A DNA stretch of 63,651 bases, filler included, from Deltaproteobacteria bacterium (GTDB lineage: Bacteria > JAUYMQ01), in the NCBI GenBank assembly GCA_030698575.1. It is 13 parts of 13 records of this genome, joined end to end, with 100 filler letters (N's around TTAATTAATTAA, not from the genome) between each part and the next. Parts side by side here need not be neighbours in the genome. Positions count along the whole stretch, not along the records: positions 57,671 to 60,789 come from JAUYMQ010000132.1; 12 more parts are not named here. One strand, 5' to 3'. The position numbers were made by a program, and so were the translations under genes. Below are positions 21,757 through 60,789 of this stretch, one piece after another; the first letter of the stretch is position 1; every line of letters begins with the position of its first letter. The notes under the pieces were generated by a model. The model made no database searches and had not been told where the DNA came from. It was given only the letters and a program-made list of their open reading frames with translations.

Positions 21757-22040
21757 CAGCAGATTTCCGGTAGATATGGCAGTAACCTGCGCGTCGCAGG
21801 GGCAATGTAGAACTTGGAAAAGTCGTCCAGCGACAGGAACCGGGAGTCCGACGGAACTTCCATCACCGCCTCTGCTCCCCTAAACCGCAGGGTGATTTCC
21901 TCCAACTCCAGATCGCCGACCCATCGACTACGCGCGGACACTTCCTTGTCGACCTGAGCGATGCCGTCGTCCGTATGGCGTTTGCAAAGCAGCAACACCG
22001 CCTCGCGCCTGACGGTTTCTAGTGCGAGCGGCGTACTCAT
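21756..22040 (-). CDS. Hypothetical phage protein
   Basis: 94-aa ORF with TGATG overlaps at both ends. Confidence 0.65.
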   Translation of the reverse strand: MSTPLALETVRREAVLLLCKRHTDDGIAQVDKEVSARSRWVGDLELEEITLRFRGAEAVMEVPSDSRFLSLDDFSKFYIAPATRRLLPYLPEIC

Positions 22041-22654
22041 CAGGTCAGCTCGTGCTCTTTCGCCGGCGTCAGCGTCAGCGTGCCCGTGTCCTCGTCCAGC
22101 ACACGCCCGCGGGGCTGCCCTGACGCGACCAGGCGGAGGAGGTCGCCGGCCGCACCGAGCAGCCCCGCATCAATCCTGACGCTTACCTCACGCTCCACCT
22201 TCAGCGTGTTCCCGTAGCGCTGCCGGTCAAACTTTTCAGCCAGCCACTTGCGCGTCTCGATCTGCAACCGGCGGTGCTCGATCATGTCGCCCTCGGACAC
22301 CTCTAGCGAACCGTCCGGCCGCGTCTTCGTCTTGACGCCCTTCTCGGGAGTGTCCGCAATGTCGATCGCCTCCAGCGCCAAATCCGCCGCCCTCACCTTC
22401 AGCGCCGCGTCGTACAGGTCCGTATGCGTCGTCGTAAACCATTCCACAAACCGACCCTTCGGCACCGCCCACTGCTTCGCAATCTCCTTCAGCGACTCCC
22501 CATCGCACAACCGCTGAAAAATCACCGACGGCGCACCAGCGTCCGCCTTCACCACCTCCAGCCTCGCCATCGGACCGGGATCACCAACGGGCAGCGTCAT
22601 AACCCTCTCCACCGACGCGCCCGAAGCAGCTTGCTGACAACCCACTTCCGCCAC
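22040..22654 (-). CDS. Phage terminase small subunit (Sf6-like)
   Basis: IFQRLCDGESLKEIA HTH, EAIDIAD, RRLQIETRKWLAEK...YG pattern typical of this TerS family. Start uncertain. Confidence 0.8.
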   Translation of the reverse strand: MAEVGCQQAASGASVERVMTLPVGDPGPMARLEVVKADAGAPSVIFQRLCDGESLKEIAKQWAVPKGRFVEWFTTTHTDLYDAALKVRAADLALEAIDIADTPEKGVKTKTRPDGSLEVSEGDMIEHRRLQIETRKWLAEKFDRQRYGNTLKVEREVSVRIDAGLLGAAGDLLRLVASGQPRGRVLDEDTGTLTLTPAKEHELT

Positions 22655-26561: not shown

Positions 26562-27998
26562 CTAATACTTGGTACGCACATAAGTGCCGATGCGCCCGGG
26601 GCACTCATAGCCTCGGGGATGCTTGTGCGGGTTCAACGAACCGTCCATCGATTTCCGCTCGAATGTCTTGCGGCAAACAGTACAGCGGTAAACGTAGCCC
26701 GGACTGGTGCCCCGTGATGGCGCCGCGCGGCGCGGCCGTGGGGATGTCCACGAACCCGAGGATTCTCTTCCTCCGGTACTCGGCCGTGACGCTGCCGGGG
26801 CAACGGGCAGCGGACCTTCCGACGTGAGTTCCACGAGATAGCGTGGCGCGAACGACTGCCCGGTGACTGATGCGCCCTGCATGCGATCAACGCGGTACGA
26901 GCGGTGCTCACCGGAATCGCTGCGAATCGCGTGCAGCACGAAATTCCCCTCGGCCGTCTGCCGAAGCGAATAGGGCTCGATGCGGCGCACGTTGCCGTCA
27001 TAGGTCAGATCGACGCAGAGTTGGTTCGCCGCAGCGAAGCGGATGATTTCGAGCGGCGCACGCGCCCGGAGCGGAACGCCCATTGGCAACACACGGCTGC
27101 GAATGGCGATGTCGGCCGACGCAGGCTCGATGCGAGCGCGCTGCGGCGCTTCCACCCCGCCCACAATCCAGGCAAAGATGTCCGGCAACGCGGCCCAGAA
27201 ATCCGCCACAGGTGGCAGCATGGGAAGCTGGTGACCAAGCATGTTCGCCCACATCGCTTCGAGATCAGCGCGATGCGGCTGGAGCGCTTCAAACGTCGGC
27301 AATGCGATGCCCTTGTAGGCGCATTTCTGCGCAAGGACATCGCGCAGCACCGCGGGCGACGGGCGGCTGTCGCCGTGACGATAGAGATTCACAACGTCGT
27401 AGAGATCGCGGGGACGAGTCCGCTCGCCAAGCGCGCGAACCTTCTCCCCGAAGGCTTCTTCGTAGGCGTAGCTGTTGATCCAGAGTCCGTCTTTAGGACG
27501 GTCGGAATACGGATGGAAAACCTCGCGCCGCACGGCGGGCAGCACGAGTTTTTCGTCCGCCGTGAGATCGAGCTTGATTTTCGGCCACCCGCCCGCGCCT
27601 GACGTGGGCGATACCGGCCCGCGACAGCCGATCCTGCCCTGACAGGAGAGGCGACCGCGCGGGTTCTGGTAGAAGTCGAAGCCCAGTTGTTCGGCAGGGA
27701 CAGCGAGGCCGGATTCCTCCGCGACCCAGGTGACGACCTCGCCGAGCACGCGCCGCAGAAAGCCCTCCTCAAGCTGGCGCTCGTCGCGCAGCGTGAAGTC
27801 AAGGTCTTCGGAAAATCTATACGTCTCGAAGTAGCATTTCTTGAGGCAGGTGCCACCCTTGAACACCCAGGCGTCGGCAAGATCGGGATGGGCGTTGATT
27901 CCGGCAAGCAACCAGCCGAGGACGTAATCCTTCTCGACAATACTGGGCAGCAGGCCGAGCGCGGAGGCCGTTTCTAGGATTTCGCGCTTGTCGATCAT
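26562..27998 (-). CDS. AbiEii nucleotidyltransferase toxin fused to a WYL-like domain and C-terminal zinc finger
   Basis: VEKDY, FKGGT, RFSEDLDF, EKVRAL, RPRDLYD; then RRIEPY...RSYRVDRM; then CTVC...H.H...C. Confidence 0.88.
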   Translation of the reverse strand: MIDKREILETASALGLLPSIVEKDYVLGWLLAGINAHPDLADAWVFKGGTCLKKCYFETYRFSEDLDFTLRDERQLEEGFLRRVLGEVVTWVAEESGLAVPAEQLGFDFYQNPRGRLSCQGRIGCRGPVSPTSGAGGWPKIKLDLTADEKLVLPAVRREVFHPYSDRPKDGLWINSYAYEEAFGEKVRALGERTRPRDLYDVVNLYRHGDSRPSPAVLRDVLAQKCAYKGIALPTFEALQPHRADLEAMWANMLGHQLPMLPPVADFWAALPDIFAWIVGGVEAPQRARIEPASADIAIRSRVLPMGVPLRARAPLEIIRFAAANQLCVDLTYDGNVRRIEPYSLRQTAEGNFVLHAIRSDSGEHRSYRVDRMQGASVTGQSFAPRYLVELTSEGPLPVAPAASRPSTGGRESSGSWTSPRPRRAAPSRGTSPGYVYRCTVCRKTFERKSMDGSLNPHKHPRGYECPGRIGTYVRTKY

Positions 27999-28798
27999 GT
28001 GGTGCGTTGCTTCCAGCGCTCCGGCACCCAGAGCCGCCATGCGGTGACCAGATGCCTGCACGAGAGTGCGGGATCAAGCCGGGTGTAGCCCTGCGTCAGC
28101 CGCTCGCGGCAGGCGGCGGCGAGTTCCGGGCTTTGCAGGCGTGTTTCGGCCAGAAAGCCAAGCCGCTTGAATATCGCGCCGTTCCCGAATTGCTCTGCGT
28201 TGCGGATCAAAAGTCCGCCGTCATAGGTCGGTGTTTTCTGGTATGCGGCGAGGCAATCGGCGACGTGATCGATGCCGCCGCCGGTGTCGGGCATCGCCAG
28301 CATGTCGATCAGGGTGCGCGCCGGGTCCGAGATATTCACGCGCGTTGTGCCGCGCCAGACGGGTTTGAGGCCGAAGAGTCGCTTCTTCGCAGCGTGATGC
28401 AGCAGGAAGACAACGCCCTGTGCTGTGGCGCGTTTCGCGCTGATTCGGCGCGTCGTGAAGACGACTGTTTCATTGAAGAGCTGTTCGGTCAGCTCCCAAT
28501 GGTGAGCGGCAGTCCATCCGCCGATATAGCATTGACCAAAGAGCGTCGGAACCAACACCCACGGGTCTCCGACAACCTGCTCGCTACCGGAGAGATCGAG
28601 CGGCACGGGGACATACAGTCCGTGCCCGATGCGCCGCAGCCAGCCTTGCTTGCGCCAGCGCGATAACAGCTTCGCGGCGGCAGTCCGGTCCAGGTCGAGC
28701 GTCTGCGCAGCGGCGTCGATCGACACCACCTCCTTGGTGGCGCGCAGCACGGCGGCGAGCCGGGCACGCGAGGCTGGCAGGGGTGTTTCGCTTCCCAT
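27995..28798 (-). CDS. AbiEi-family type IV antitoxin
   Basis: wHTH GWLRRIGHGLY, YIGGWTAAHHWELTEQ, SDPARTLID; ATGA coupling to toxin. Confidence 0.88.
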   Translation of the reverse strand: MGSETPLPASRARLAAVLRATKEVVSIDAAAQTLDLDRTAAAKLLSRWRKQGWLRRIGHGLYVPVPLDLSGSEQVVGDPWVLVPTLFGQCYIGGWTAAHHWELTEQLFNETVVFTTRRISAKRATAQGVVFLLHHAAKKRLFGLKPVWRGTTRVNISDPARTLIDMLAMPDTGGGIDHVADCLAAYQKTPTYDGGLLIRNAEQFGNGAIFKRLGFLAETRLQSPELAAACRERLTQGYTRLDPALSCRHLVTAWRLWVPERWKQRTT

Positions 28799-57670: not shown

Positions 57671-57904
57671 ACCGTGGGCGCGTTGTTCGACGTCATCGAG
57701 GGCGACTACGCCTCCCCGGATGAACTGGCCGACGCACGCGCCCACGACGACCGCATCCGTGCCGAGGCGCTTCGGGATGCCGCCCGCGGCATGGAGACGG
57801 AGTGGCCCGACATGGACCACCTGAGCCCCTCGGACTGGCTCCGGCTCCGCGCCGATGCCATCGAGCACGGCGAATACGATGCCCCCGACCGGGGCGAGGA
57901 GTAG
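57671..57904 (+). CDS. Phage-like hypothetical protein A, 5'-truncated
   Basis: RAEALRDAA...WLRLRA; ends PDRGEE. Confidence 0.7.
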   Translation, partial: TVGALFDVIEGDYASPDELADARAHDDRIRAEALRDAARGMETEWPDMDHLSPSDWLRLRADAIEHGEYDAPDRGEE

Positions 57905-57907
57905 ACG

Positions 57908-58327
57908 ATGGCTGACTCAGATTACAATTGGACCGCGCTGACCCGCCTGCGCTGTGGGGCCGTGGTGGAGGAGGTGATGGCCGCGACCCAGATGGACGGG
58001 ATCGGCGTCATCGCCTCGTGGCTGCTTCGCCGCGACGGCACCTGGAGGGTTCGAGCTGTGGACACCGAACTCGGTGATTGGATCACCGAGTTCGGCCCCG
58101 AGGAGGGGGTGCCACCCGAACCGCCAGCGAATCTCCTGGAGGAGCATGCGCTGTCCGGGGCCTACGGAGCGCAGGACACGCTCCGTGCAGAGCGAGACGA
58201 TGCCCGCGCACAGGTCGCGGCGCTGCGGGAGATGCTCGATTCCCTGAGCGTCGATCCATCGATCAGCTTCGGCCTGCGCCTGAAGATTACGAACATGCTT
58301 GACGACCGCGGCCGGGGCGAGGAGTAG
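57908..58327 (+). CDS. Phage-like hypothetical protein B
   Basis: Contains LRAERDDARAQVAALR; ends RGRGEE. Confidence 0.72.
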   Translation: MADSDYNWTALTRLRCGAVVEEVMAATQMDGIGVIASWLLRRDGTWRVRAVDTELGDWITEFGPEEGVPPEPPANLLEEHALSGAYGAQDTLRAERDDARAQVAALREMLDSLSVDPSISFGLRLKITNMLDDRGRGEE

Positions 58328-58858
58328 GTGATGATCTACACCGTCCAGCAGTGCGACAGCAGGGGGCGCTACGTCCCCGACGGGGATGCGTGGCTGGTCC
58401 GCGCCCGCTCCCCCCAGCACGCCGTAGACCTCGTGGCCGCGGACGGGTGGCGAGCCGGGCACGGCGAGGGGTGCGTAGTCGCCCTCGTGGCCGATCTAGC
58501 CAAGTGGACCCGGGGCGGTGATCCGCCGCTCCCGCTCGTCACGCCCGAGACGATCCAGTACGGGATCTGGCGCCCGCATTCGGAGGTGACGTGGGCCGGG
58601 TACGGAGGAGTCCCGGACGGCTGGCACTACTGCGGCGGCTGCGGGCTCGTCCGCGAGATGGAGTCGGAGTGGGCCACCGATGGGGACGAGTGCGACGAGT
58701 GTACCGGGTGCGAGAGCCAGGGCTGCGACGCCCCCGCGGCATGGATCGACTCGGGCGTGACGAGCGGGAGCGGCTGGTGCGCCGAGCAACGCGACCACGG
58801 GCCCTGCGAGCCTGACGAGCCTGACGAGCCTGACGAGAAGGACTCCGACGATGACTGA
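58328..58858 (+). CDS. Phage-like Cys-rich hypothetical protein C
   Basis: CGGC, CDECTGC, C..H motifs; C-terminal 9-bp tandem repeat. Confidence 0.7.
   Translation: MMIYTVQQCDSRGRYVPDGDAWLVRARSPQHAVDLVAADGWRAGHGEGCVVALVADLAKWTRGGDPPLPLVTPETIQYGIWRPHSEVTWAGYGGVPDGWHYCGGCGLVREMESEWATDGDECDECTGCESQGCDAPAAWIDSGVTSGSGWCAEQRDHGPCEPDEPDEPDEKDSDDD
58808..58837 (+). repeat. In-frame tandem repeat (GAGCCTGAC)x3.3
   Basis: Encodes EPD-EPD-EPD-E. Confidence 0.85.
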
Positions 58859-59486
58859 CCCCCTGACCCCCGAGCGCGTGCGCTCCCTGCACGACGGGGC
58901 ATCGCCGGACTGGGTGGCGGAGCCGGATACCGGCGCCATCACGTCCGCAGGTGTGCAGATTCTCACTACGGCGGCGGGCAACCGAGCGGGCAACCTCCCG
59001 CTGGCGCTGGCCGCCCCCGACCTCGCCGACACGCTGCTCCAAGCGTGGGAGCAGCGGGACGCGGCGCGGGCCGATGCCGATCGACTGCGGGATGAGCGGG
59101 ACACTGCGTTGCGCGTCACCGAGCAGTACAGGTCCATCGTGGAGGAGATCGGTGGGATGGGTCGGTCGAGCGCGCTGGTCAAGCTCCAGGCAGAGCGGGA
59201 CGAGGCGCGGATTCAGTGCGATCGCACCCGAGAGGCCGCCGCGCGAGAGCACGAGCGGCAGGAGGGGAACAAGGCGGCCCTCGCCGCCCAGGTTGCCGCG
59301 CTGTTGTGGAGCGCCCTCGACGACGTGACCGACGTGGTCCGCGACCACCTTGGGGACAGCTACCCGTGCGCGCTGGAGGAGGCGCAAGCGGCGCTCTCCT
59401 CGCAGGTATTGGAGACGTACACGACGACGGCCGCCATCGAGCGCGGCAAACACTGCCCCGAGAGGGGCGAGGGGGTAGAGCGATGA
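58851..59486 (+). CDS. Phage-like coiled-coil protein D (Ead/Ea22-like architecture)
   Basis: N-terminal LALAAPDL module, three QRD/ERD coiled-coil repeats; ends PERGEGVER. Confidence 0.7.
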   Translation: MTDPLTPERVRSLHDGASPDWVAEPDTGAITSAGVQILTTAAGNRAGNLPLALAAPDLADTLLQAWEQRDAARADADRLRDERDTALRVTEQYRSIVEEIGGMGRSSALVKLQAERDEARIQCDRTREAAAREHERQEGNKAALAAQVAALLWSALDDVTDVVRDHLGDSYPCALEEAQAALSSQVLETYTTTAAIERGKHCPERGEGVER

Positions 59487-59740
59487 AGGCATACCTACTG
59501 CGTGTTCTGGTGATCGACCACAACGAGGTCGGAGCCGGGATCCGCCTCGTGATCGAGGCCACCCGCTACCCCAACAGGTGCATTGCACCGACGGTCCTGG
59601 ATGTCACCGAGCACCAGATCGGTGAATGGTCCGACGACCATCCGCTGAACTACGCGGCCACTGACGCTCTGGCGTGGATCAAGGAGTACGCACCAGGGAG
59701 CGAGGACAGCCCCGACCGGGGCGAGGAGGTAGAGCGATGA
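59483..59740 (+). CDS. Phage-like hypothetical protein E
   Basis: ATGA overlap; MKAYLLRVLVIDH...IGEWSDDHPLN; ends PDRGEEVER. Confidence 0.75.
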   Translation: MKAYLLRVLVIDHNEVGAGIRLVIEATRYPNRCIAPTVLDVTEHQIGEWSDDHPLNYAATDALAWIKEYAPGSEDSPDRGEEVER

Positions 59741-60051
59741 CACGGACGACCGATGAGCGACTGACCGAGGCCGAGGCACGCGCCATCCTGACGCGCGACG
59801 ATAGGGACGTGGTGGTGGGGTCCGAGTACCGCGCCGTCGTCCACCTCGCCCGAGACCTGCGTATCGAGCGGGACGCGGCGCGGGCCCAGGTCGCGGTGCT
59901 GCGGACCGCGCTGCTCCGGTACGGCATGCACGACCGGGGCGTCGGCTACCCCGCGTGCGCCGTCACCCAGCCCCGCCCAGGGGCCTGCTCCTGCGGACTG
60001 GATGATGTGCTGAGCGGCCCCAACCGGGGCGAGGAGATGGACCGTGACTGA
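59737..60051 (+). CDS. Phage-like hypothetical protein F
   Basis: ATGA overlap; LRIERDAARAQVAVLR, H...C...CSCGL; ends PNRGEEMDRD. Confidence 0.75.
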   Translation: MTRTTDERLTEAEARAILTRDDRDVVVGSEYRAVVHLARDLRIERDAARAQVAVLRTALLRYGMHDRGVGYPACAVTQPRPGACSCGLDDVLSGPNRGEEMDRD

Positions 60052-60445
60052 CATGACCTGGGATTGGAGCGCCATCTTGCCTGAGAAGTGGGGCCGCGAC
60101 CACCACTCCACTCTGCTCTACATCGAGAGCCGCGTGACCGAGCACAAGGGCGTCCCCCGCGCCGCCAACATGCGGACCAAGCAGGGGAGCGTGCGGCGCG
60201 GGCACTGTGTGCTTGGCGAGCAGATGCAGCACTGCGGCGACAAGGACTACCCCACGCGCCTCGCTGGCGGCGTCCTCTTGCACGGTCACGATGACTGGGA
60301 CTGCGTGTCCGACATGGTCGCGGCCGGGCTCGTGGAGTGGGGCGGGACCGGGCTGCACCCCATCTTCGCGCTGACGGATGCCGGCTGGGCTGAGGCCGGC
60401 AGGCTGCGGCGAGCCAAGGCAGGCGCAGACCGAGGTGCCCCATGA
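60044..60445 (+). CDS. Phage-like hypothetical protein G
   Basis: RDHHSTLLYIESR, YPTRL, HDDWDC, winged-helix-like LTDAGW; ends DRGAP. Confidence 0.75.
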   Translation: MTDMTWDWSAILPEKWGRDHHSTLLYIESRVTEHKGVPRAANMRTKQGSVRRGHCVLGEQMQHCGDKDYPTRLAGGVLLHGHDDWDCVSDMVAAGLVEWGGTGLHPIFALTDAGWAEAGRLRRAKAGADRGAP

Positions 60446-60789
60446 CTGAGCCCTTGCCCCCCAAGCGCGTGAGGGCGCTGCTCCAGCACGCGTCGGTGGA
60501 GCGCATCGTCGCCGCGCTCCAAACAGGCAGCGATCCGATGGTCGTTGGGCCCCGCACCGCGCTCCCTATCGCTATACCCCTTCCGAGCCGAACTGGGCGC
60601 TACTTGCTCAACGGGCATCTGTGCGGCCTCGTGTGGCCACACCGGCCCGGCGAGTGGGTCGGCAGCGGTGGCGGGCGAAAGCGGGACGACACGATCTACC
60701 CGGACCGCACGTTCCGAACCGAGCGAAAAGCGACCGAGTACGCCGATCTCTGCCTGCGGCGGGCGGGCGATTTGATCGATGATCTAGGC
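60442..60789 (+). CDS. Phage-like hypothetical protein H, 3'-truncated
   Basis: ATGA overlap; N-terminus MTEPLPPKRVR resembles protein D. Confidence 0.65.

Follow-up and report, generated by a model that had tools for sequence, protein, structure and literature searches.

A putative start-associated translation-initiation element repeated along a phage-like array of small genes in a groundwater metagenome contig

Since 2011, Cluster K mycobacteriophages have been known to carry start-associated sequences (SAS) (PMC3203893). As described in that report, they are asymmetric, 13 bp long, have an AGGAG core and lie 3-7 bp before start codons in one orientation; the genes that follow them come from various families of the non-structural genome region. 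They sometimes contain the upstream stop codon and are absent from the host. Their conservation extends beyond what rRNA pairing needs, and about half of the sites have inverted repeats directly upstream (extended SAS, ESAS) (PMC3203893). A 2025 survey of 188 genomes still calls the role of these sequences unverified (PMC12699233). Here we describe a repeated block of ~30 nt, located before the starts of five small genes, in a short contig that forms positions 57671-60789 of a 63,651-nt stretch of DNA (referred to as the window) from the assembly of Deltaproteobacteria bacterium JAUYMQ01 (GCA_030698575.1). Judged by analogy, SAS/ESAS appear to be the closest known kind of element, different from the block in sequence.

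Several other phage elements are placed at gene boundaries. In T4-type phages, small conserved regulatory motifs (PeSLs, promoter early stem-loops) flank ORFan genes in hyperplastic regions, and the reports on them propose, and in part show, that they act as crossover points for gene gain, loss and replacement (PMC2839356, PMC4122927). Cluster A stoperators are described as many short one-way copies at or near gene boundaries, which are bound by the phage repressor (PMC3203893, PMC9283540). At the level of translation, the T4 RegA protein is reported to act as a repressor at the initiation regions of ~30 mRNAs, and the operator of gp43 combines a hairpin with a sequence overlapping the ribosome-binding site (RBS) (PMC3014915).

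The window consists of 13 contigs joined by 100-base linkers (N around TTAATTAATTAA). An earlier note on this DNA, made from the sequence alone, had given correct coordinates for the region of interest but treated it as part of a longer sequence; it is in fact one complete contig of 3,119 bases (GC 0.696), bounded by N/TTAATTAATTAA linkers on both sides. The whole contig (57671..60789, + strand) is occupied by eight co-directional open reading frames (ORFs), A-H, which abut or overlap one another, the stop-to-start distances across all seven junctions ranging from -8 to +3 nt. Five of the junctions (A-B, B-C, D-E, E-F and F-G) share 28-35 nt, with 82-89% identity between neighbours. The shared block is composed, in this order, of GCCCC-N4/5-GGGGC, the Shine-Dalgarno (SD) core GAGGAG, a spacer of 6-8 nt and then ATG or GTG. 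It is anchored to starts: it lies at about -31 to -1 relative to the downstream start, and the five copies, when aligned on the downstream start codon, coincide with a shift of at most 1 nt. Several of the downstream genes share their first codons too (ATG/GTG-ACT-GAC). Outside the block the similarity between the copies stops sharply, and the flanks themselves have no detectable similarity.

Two types of copy can be told apart. Type I is found at A-B (57878..57910, + strand), where the hairpin at 57880-57896 is followed by GAGGAG, an in-frame TAG, a 6-nt spacer and the ATG at 57908, and at B-C (58301..58333, +), which has GGGGC, GAGGAG, TAG and the ATG at 58331, and no left half of the palindrome. 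Type II is found at D-E (59452..59486, +; hairpin 59454-59469 with a GAGA loop, GAGGGGG, spacer, ATGA stop/start overlap), E-F (59706..59740, +; hairpin 59709-59722, GAGGAGG, spacer TAGAGCG, ATGA overlap) and F-G (60017..60046, +; hairpin 60017-60030 with an AACC loop, GAGGAG, 7-nt spacer, GTG at 60044). All six sites quoted in the earlier note (57884, 58312, 59457, 59711, 60019 and a degenerate one at 60428) lie exactly where it had placed them, and the D-E and E-F copies are, as it reported, identical at 27 of 30 positions, or at 31 of 35 over the longer block. The junctions C-D and G-H contain ordinary SDs without the palindrome; the latter (60428..60444, +; GACCGAGGTG + CCCC + ATG) is possibly a decayed copy of the block, its alignment being ambiguous.

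The occurrence of these copies is not a matter of chance. The 12-mer CGGGGCGAGGAG is present in four exact copies against 0.07 expected, a number reached in none of 100 shuffles; all four are on the + strand of this contig and none is found elsewhere in the window. Similarly, the combined hairpin and SD pattern CCCC-N4-5-GGGGCGAGG has four sites against 0.06 expected. The copies are separated by 423, 1150, 254 and 308 nt, with a density of ~1.6 copies per kb, and Tandem Repeats Finder (TRF) detected in the contig only a coding repeat of four 9-nt units and a repeat of two 8-nt units. The array was said to be neither integron-like nor CRISPR-like. The second point holds: there is no tandem array, and the spacing of the copies (254-1150 nt) is gene-length and unlike that of a CRISPR array. 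The first is probable, as the junction distances leave no intergenic space and no ORF has a Pfam match, within a contig whose ends may hide neighbouring genes. In each case the block is, as had been claimed, simultaneously the C-terminal coding sequence of the upstream gene and the SD region of the next one. The further statement that it is longer than an RBS needs is also correct, except that the extension is not confined to the upstream side, since the block also runs through the spacer to the start codon. This extension never occurs in the other 60 kb of the window, where the 83 listed candidates for an SD plus start have unrelated upstream sequences, so the block does not reflect the usual RBS context of the bin. 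Among viral contigs, an 18-nt motif pattern gave three single-copy matches and no arrays, i.e. about the chance level, and the 10-mer GGGCGAGGAG occurs at least twice in only 2 of 137 viral loci, with at most two copies in each. Rfam produced no matches at E values up to 1.

We consider it moderately probable (roughly 60%) that the block serves as a start-associated cassette for translation initiation and that, by overlapping the ends of the upstream ORFs, it gives the encoded proteins their shared tail. It would be a cis element of ~30 nt, holding a fixed position before the starts of five small genes in an apparently phage-derived polycistronic array, and built of a 5-bp GC palindrome or mini-hairpin, a strong SD core (GAGGAG or GAGGAGG), a spacer and the start codon, with the 6-8 nt spacer holding or abutting the upstream stop codon. 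Because the genes abut without intergenic space, the element would be accommodated within the last 6-10 codons of the upstream ORF, where it would impose PDRGEE(VER) on otherwise unrelated proteins, this tail being a by-product and not a functional peptide. Each gene would be provided with the same strong, well-spaced RBS for coupled (re)initiation on one mRNA. The GC hairpin might either stop the G-rich SD from pairing elsewhere in a transcript of 70% GC or offer a handle to a regulator. The copies would be kept alike by selection and probably also by recombination or conversion between neighbours, by which they may have spread, since type I copies adjoin one another and so do type II copies. 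There are no promoter-like sites in the contig and no terminator-like sites on its + strand, so a single polycistronic unit fits the array; a single terminator-like site was found, on the minus strand (60748-60732).

The likeness to SAS lies in the orientation (5 of 5 copies on the + strand), the SD core and the distance of 6-8 nt from GAGGAG to the start. The genes following the copies (B, C, E, F and G) fall mostly into separate families, in a segment of 3.1 kb that may or may not belong to a non-structural region. However, the SAS consensus GGGATAGGAGCCC is found at none of the junctions with up to 2 mismatches, and the block is therefore not a sequence member of this group. In the window as a whole the consensus has 24 matches at up to 3 mismatches against 29.3 expected, and its sole match in the contig (60060-60072, 2 mismatches) is inside G, off any junction. 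ESAS contain imperfect 17-bp inverted repeats with a spacer of 4-13 bp, whereas the arms here are of 5-6 bp around a centre of 4-5 nt, and the analogy is one of position only. Moreover, in contrast to SAS, the block is situated wholly inside the upstream coding sequence, giving five proteins a common tail, and the contigs binned together with it come from a diderm (LptD, Kdo kinase) and not from Mycobacterium.

The common tail might itself be the selected feature, PDRGEE serving as a functional C-terminal tag (a degron, a partner-binding or a localisation signal). All five copies are indeed in frame 0 of the upstream ORF, in agreement with the earlier note, which had listed a peptide tag among its alternatives; furthermore, the D-E copy differs by a D to E replacement plus a synonymous change of CGG to AGG, and the tail of G reads DRG from other codons. 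However, the common frame carries no independent weight, since both the stop of the upstream gene and the start of the downstream one lie within the block and thereby dictate the frame. At A-B and B-C the string TAGA(G)CGATG that follows GAGGAG ends the upstream ORF with its TAG, read in frame; at D-E and E-F the frame is shifted by one additional G, and the upstream ORFs continue to the ATGA overlap. As the string crosses frames in this way, its conservation is independent of the reading frame. Among the 43 pairs of codons for the same residue in the six shared positions, 39 are identical, compared with 23.1 expected under selection on the peptide alone (P~0.0002; 20,000 simulations with the contig's own codon usage). 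The codons are thus far more uniform than the peptide requires, and the comparison of synonymous codons that the earlier note had proposed places the conservation at the nucleotide level.

Homologues of the tagged proteins, which had been suggested as another test, point in the same direction. None of 21 relatives of E carries the tail, and it is likewise missing from 21 of 21 aligned relatives of G (the alignment includes 21 of the 25 relatives, P0015, P0020, P0024 and P0026 having been left out), and the last 28 residues of B are reached by none of the best matches of its 63 relatives. In three of the five proteins the motif is not C-terminal, being followed by VER or MDRD. The tails have low confidence in the structural models: residues 75-85 of E have a predicted local distance difference test (pLDDT) score below 50 and are predicted to be disordered, and the last block of G scores 60. 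Since the tail is missing from the relatives of E, G and B, and the conservation acts on nucleotides, selection for a peptide tag seems extremely improbable.

A hairpin is predicted at four of the five copies (the exception being B-C) in both minimum free energy and centroid structures; its loops vary (CGACC, GAGA, GACC, AACC), the stem is unchanged and the SD is mostly unpaired. These predictions are suggestive only, and several observations weigh against the initiation-element interpretation. Windows of 60 nt around the junctions fold no better than shuffled sequences (z from -1.43 to +0.44), and, because the stem never varies, the hairpin has no support from covariation. The conserved half-sites would fit a DNA palindrome recognised by a dimeric protein equally well, and B-C has no hairpin, yet keeps the rest of the block. 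The element is known from five copies in one 3.1-kb contig of low coverage, and it is possible that it is the general RBS of the whole phage, of which only these 3.1 kb are seen. Finally, the identity of codons is also expected from recent common descent or gene conversion, even if the upstream portion of the block is under no selection.

The same palindrome may be viewed differently: a phage-encoded regulator might bind it, and the earlier note had itself named a translational operator among its alternatives. Beside each SD, the 14-bp near-palindrome GCCCC-N4-GGGGC could act as DNA, with its binding protein blocking transcription of the array like a stoperator, or as RNA, with a translational repressor of the RegA or gp43 kind occluding the SD. 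Conserved half-sites around a variable 4-nt centre suit a dimer-binding palindrome as well as they suit a hairpin. All copies have one orientation and overlap stop and start codons, as is described for stoperators and SAS (PMC3203893, PMC9283540), and T4 RegA and gp43 are reported precedents for regulation at mRNA initiation regions (PMC3014915). The parallels are incomplete: stoperators are asymmetric 13-bp transcriptional elements without an SD, whereas the block consists of a palindrome plus an SD and is anchored to starts; RegA binds A+U-rich stretches without structure, and gp43 has just one operator site, through which it regulates itself. A Pfam search detected no RegA-like protein in the array.

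A candidate binder of the palindrome might be the protein G (60044..60445, +; 133 amino acids (aa)), which has a winged-helix-like predicted fold. In its model (pLDDT 91.7), helices at residues 84-93 and 112-128 enclose strands at 97-101 and 106-110. Foldseek returned nothing at E<=0.001, its top rows being winged-helix proteins with E values of 0.08-0.3. With VIA-align the best match had a Z score of 8.1 (root-mean-square deviation 2.9 A over 80 residues), and the top 50 were nearly all winged-helix regulators. This resemblance is modest, however, and the matches may reflect a common fold only. The G family, moreover, is present in 48 viral loci that do not contain the motif, so that G is not tied to it, and B-C has no left half-site. 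We therefore hold an operator function to be possible though doubtful. It would be compatible with the start-associated role, since the SD part of the block would still work as an RBS.

The earlier note had favoured a cassette system, in which crossovers at the block add, delete or reorder genes while translational coupling is kept. The block would then be mainly a portable homology patch, in the manner of PeSLs. This view accords with the sharp ends of the similarity, with unrelated genes being flanked by blocks that are 82-89% identical, and with the clustering of type I and of type II copies, a pattern expected of local exchange. For PeSLs, both shuffling and the formation of mini-circles have been documented (PMC2839356, PMC4122927). 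The array also looks like a mosaic, because the E and G families occur in phages singly and never together. A search with all eight proteins (tblastn) found only G or E in viral contigs (137 loci at an E value of 1e-3 and 162 at 1e-2), and none of the 162 loci carries two or more of the eight genes; the two families are scattered over phages of 34-71% GC. Scans of viral contigs with G alone and with C alone found nothing.

A weak hint of rearrangement is provided by P0028, the single relative of D among 5.8 billion proteins (266 aa, encoded by an 821-bp contig). An N-terminus like that of D (63% identity over 48 residues) is followed by a linker and then by a part resembling C (62% over 158 residues; C is 62% identical to residues 111-264), and from this order it follows that in this distant relative a D-like gene, and not B, directly precedes C. 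The linker contains PRPG, the peptide that CCCCGACCGGGG gives one frame over, and to judge from the peptide this sequence may be present there. With only 62% identity, however, many events separate P0028 from the array.

Other results argue against exchange at the block. In two runs all five junctions are spanned by contigs, in the order of the window, and a second sample shows the same order over A-B, D-E, E-F and F-G. In a search for joints between non-adjacent copies or for circles, which would betray such exchange, neither was found in three runs, these being represented by assembled contigs, which drop rare variants. The only alternative form of the array, a contig present in runs X1 and X2, breaks at 59219 (+ strand) inside D, just past the ERDEAR segment common to B, D and F, next to this internal repeat and not at the block. 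It matches 59219-59869 with 4 differences in 651 nt (99.4%), covering the 3' half of D, E and the 5' part of F, and is dissimilar upstream of 59219; the frame of D stays open over the 30 letters read at the breakpoint. This form may be either a co-existing strain or a second paralogous locus. As it diverges inside D, the motif has no part in at least one of the mosaic boundaries. The copies have no exact run in common longer than ~19 nt, a short length for homologous recombination. The contig encodes no recombinase, and none of the eight proteins reaches the Pfam cut-off. Close relatives suitable for breakpoint mapping were not found in the phage and viral collections searched.

PeSLs, furthermore, combine a sigma-70-like promoter with a terminator stem-loop and are intergenic, whereas the block contains an RBS inside coding sequence; with neither a promoter-like site nor a + strand terminator, it is not a PeSL. 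It might be a translation-coupled counterpart of one, a portable joint of stop, SD and start for swapping, deleting or inserting promoterless small genes within one operon. The GC palindrome would then be a crossover or protein-recognition point, recombinants would be in frame upstream and correctly initiated downstream, PDRGEE might be the visible scar, and G or another protein of the array might promote the exchange. We regard this version as unlikely, and the same degree of scepticism applies to the homology patch in general. Both a regulator operator and a recombination boundary could nevertheless coexist with the start-associated function of the block.

The description of the genes as mostly unrelated proved to be true only in part. 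E, G and the N-terminal domain of B belong to separate families, but partial paralogy links others: D and H have a common N-terminus (59 nt, 71%), B, D and F a common internal segment ERDxARAQVAxLR (48 nt, 77%), and A and D ~15 C-terminal residues. This patchy pattern makes exchange among the genes plausible, without confining it to the block. It could also be taken as a trace of repeated tandem duplication, the block being merely its slowest-decaying remnant, an ordinary RBS with no further function, and the codon-level identity would fit such common descent. However, as E, G and the B N-terminal domain represent three different, widely distributed families, the genes cannot all be paralogues; moreover, decay would not leave a sharp-edged block of 82-89% identity beside dissimilar flanks. 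An origin by duplication alone is accordingly very unlikely.

The eight small co-directional ORFs reported earlier are all borne out: each + strand ORF has the coding signature of the real genes of the bin (GC content of 0.79-0.89 at third and 0.42-0.55 at second codon positions), which the longer minus-strand ORFs do not show. ORF A (57674..57904, +), cut at its 5' end by the contig end, terminates in APDRGEE. ORF B (57908..58327, +; 139 aa) has an N-terminal domain extending from residue 4 to about 75, with 63 relatives, and ends in DRGRGEE; its C-terminal half (the ERD..LR segment and the tail) is outside the N-domain family. ORF D (58851..59486, +; 211 aa) ends in CPERGEGVER and has an N-terminus in common with H and with residues 1-75 of P0028. 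ORF E (59483..59740, +; 85 aa), whose tail is SPDRGEEVER, belongs to a small phage protein family of 70-85 residues with an invariant IGEWSDDHPLN core (21 relatives and 22 IMG/VR loci); it has matches in the cyanophages Pam2 and S-CRM01, and a weak PHROG match. ORF F (59737..60051, +; 104 aa) terminates in GPNRGEEMDRD. ORF G, described above, ends in GADRGAP, which is not conserved in its family. This family has 25 relatives in a large protein database and 48 loci in IMG/VR, 35 of them on contigs of at least 75 kb, and G has matches at ~32% identity in 11 records of Caulobacter jumbo phages. ORF H (60442..60789, +), cut at its 3' end by the contig end, is paralogous to D at its N-terminus. Given the families of E and G (and of the B N-terminal domain), and the presence of E and G in phages or viral contigs, the array is, to judge from sequence, phage-derived.

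ORF C (58331..58858, +; 175 aa), a Cys-rich protein with an alternative GTG start at 58328, ends in a PDE repeat, without the shared tail. This acidic (PDE)n tail is encoded by four copies of the 9-nt unit CCTGACGAG (58803-58837). C also contains a 33-nt inverted repeat (58525-58557 and 58742-58774) with arms 97% complementary and 184 nt apart; in both runs the assembled (Logan) contigs are interrupted around it. The repeat was considered as an invertible coding switch, and this was rejected: inversion creates a stop, and the orientation in the window agrees with that in P0028.

The contig is contained in two groundwater metagenome runs (X1 and X2) of one study, and no RNA sequencing runs are listed as containing it. 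Matches of 34-38 nt from other assembled contigs were disregarded as coming from unrelated organisms, and a blastn comparison with 50,697 phage records gave no match. The remaining contigs of the window carry ordinary bacterial genes (LptD, Kdo/WaaP-type kinase, DUF4388, cytochrome oxidase, a fused FO synthase), and for this reason the window resembles the genome bin of a high-GC diderm with one short phage-like contig added to it. An Sf6-type small terminase-like ORF (22040-22654, minus strand; PF20901, E 1.8e-15) lies beside split transketolase genes on a 2.9-kb contig and may represent a prophage or another phage fragment. An AbiEii-type nucleotidyltransferase toxin (26562-28061, minus strand; PF08843, E 8.8e-34) is encoded on a 3.2-kb contig. 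The final contig (60890-63651) has small ORFs only, none of the 10 tested having a Pfam match at E<=1e-5; it does not contain the junction motif and could be another mobile-element fragment.

Dispersed repeats anchored to starts are uncommon among the 119 viral loci of at least 3 kb that were scanned. An unrelated 47.8-kb viral contig with a G-family gene (L025:5164-19382; IMGVR_UViG_3300001201_000001) carries the 11-mer ATCAATTCGAC, which is not SD-like; of the 10 copies listed, about 9 have an ATG 0-4 nt downstream, and in a 10-mer scan, 10 of 11 copies precede a start followed by an ORF of at least 40 codons. Start-associated repeats thus recur with other sequences. Repeats of other kinds were noted in two more G-family loci. 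In 18.6 kb of a locus with 42% GC (L071; Ga0180438_10000303), 11-mers of a palindromic CACTCCCTTCGCGGGAGTG-like unit occur 37 times each, and the dispersed-copy count gives 14 copies at least 150 nt apart. A 256-kb viral contig contains at least 11 copies of the 12-nt tandem repeat GCTCCGGTAGAA (L042:16715-16845).

If the block is indeed an initiation element, it would be an independent example showing that start-associated sequences are not peculiar to mycobacteriophages. It would be marked by an unrelated sequence, by its origin in an uncultivated phage of groundwater that shares a bin with a high-GC diderm, and by a palindrome that directly abuts the SD. With stem, loop, SD and spacer within 30 nt, the block would also be a simpler element to dissect. 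Should the recombination reading be true instead, modular shuffling of the PeSL type would be extended to promoterless, translationally coupled genes. Moreover, through a nucleotide signal of this kind, proteins that are otherwise unrelated can come to share a peptide tail, and this might lead protein clustering and domain calling astray.

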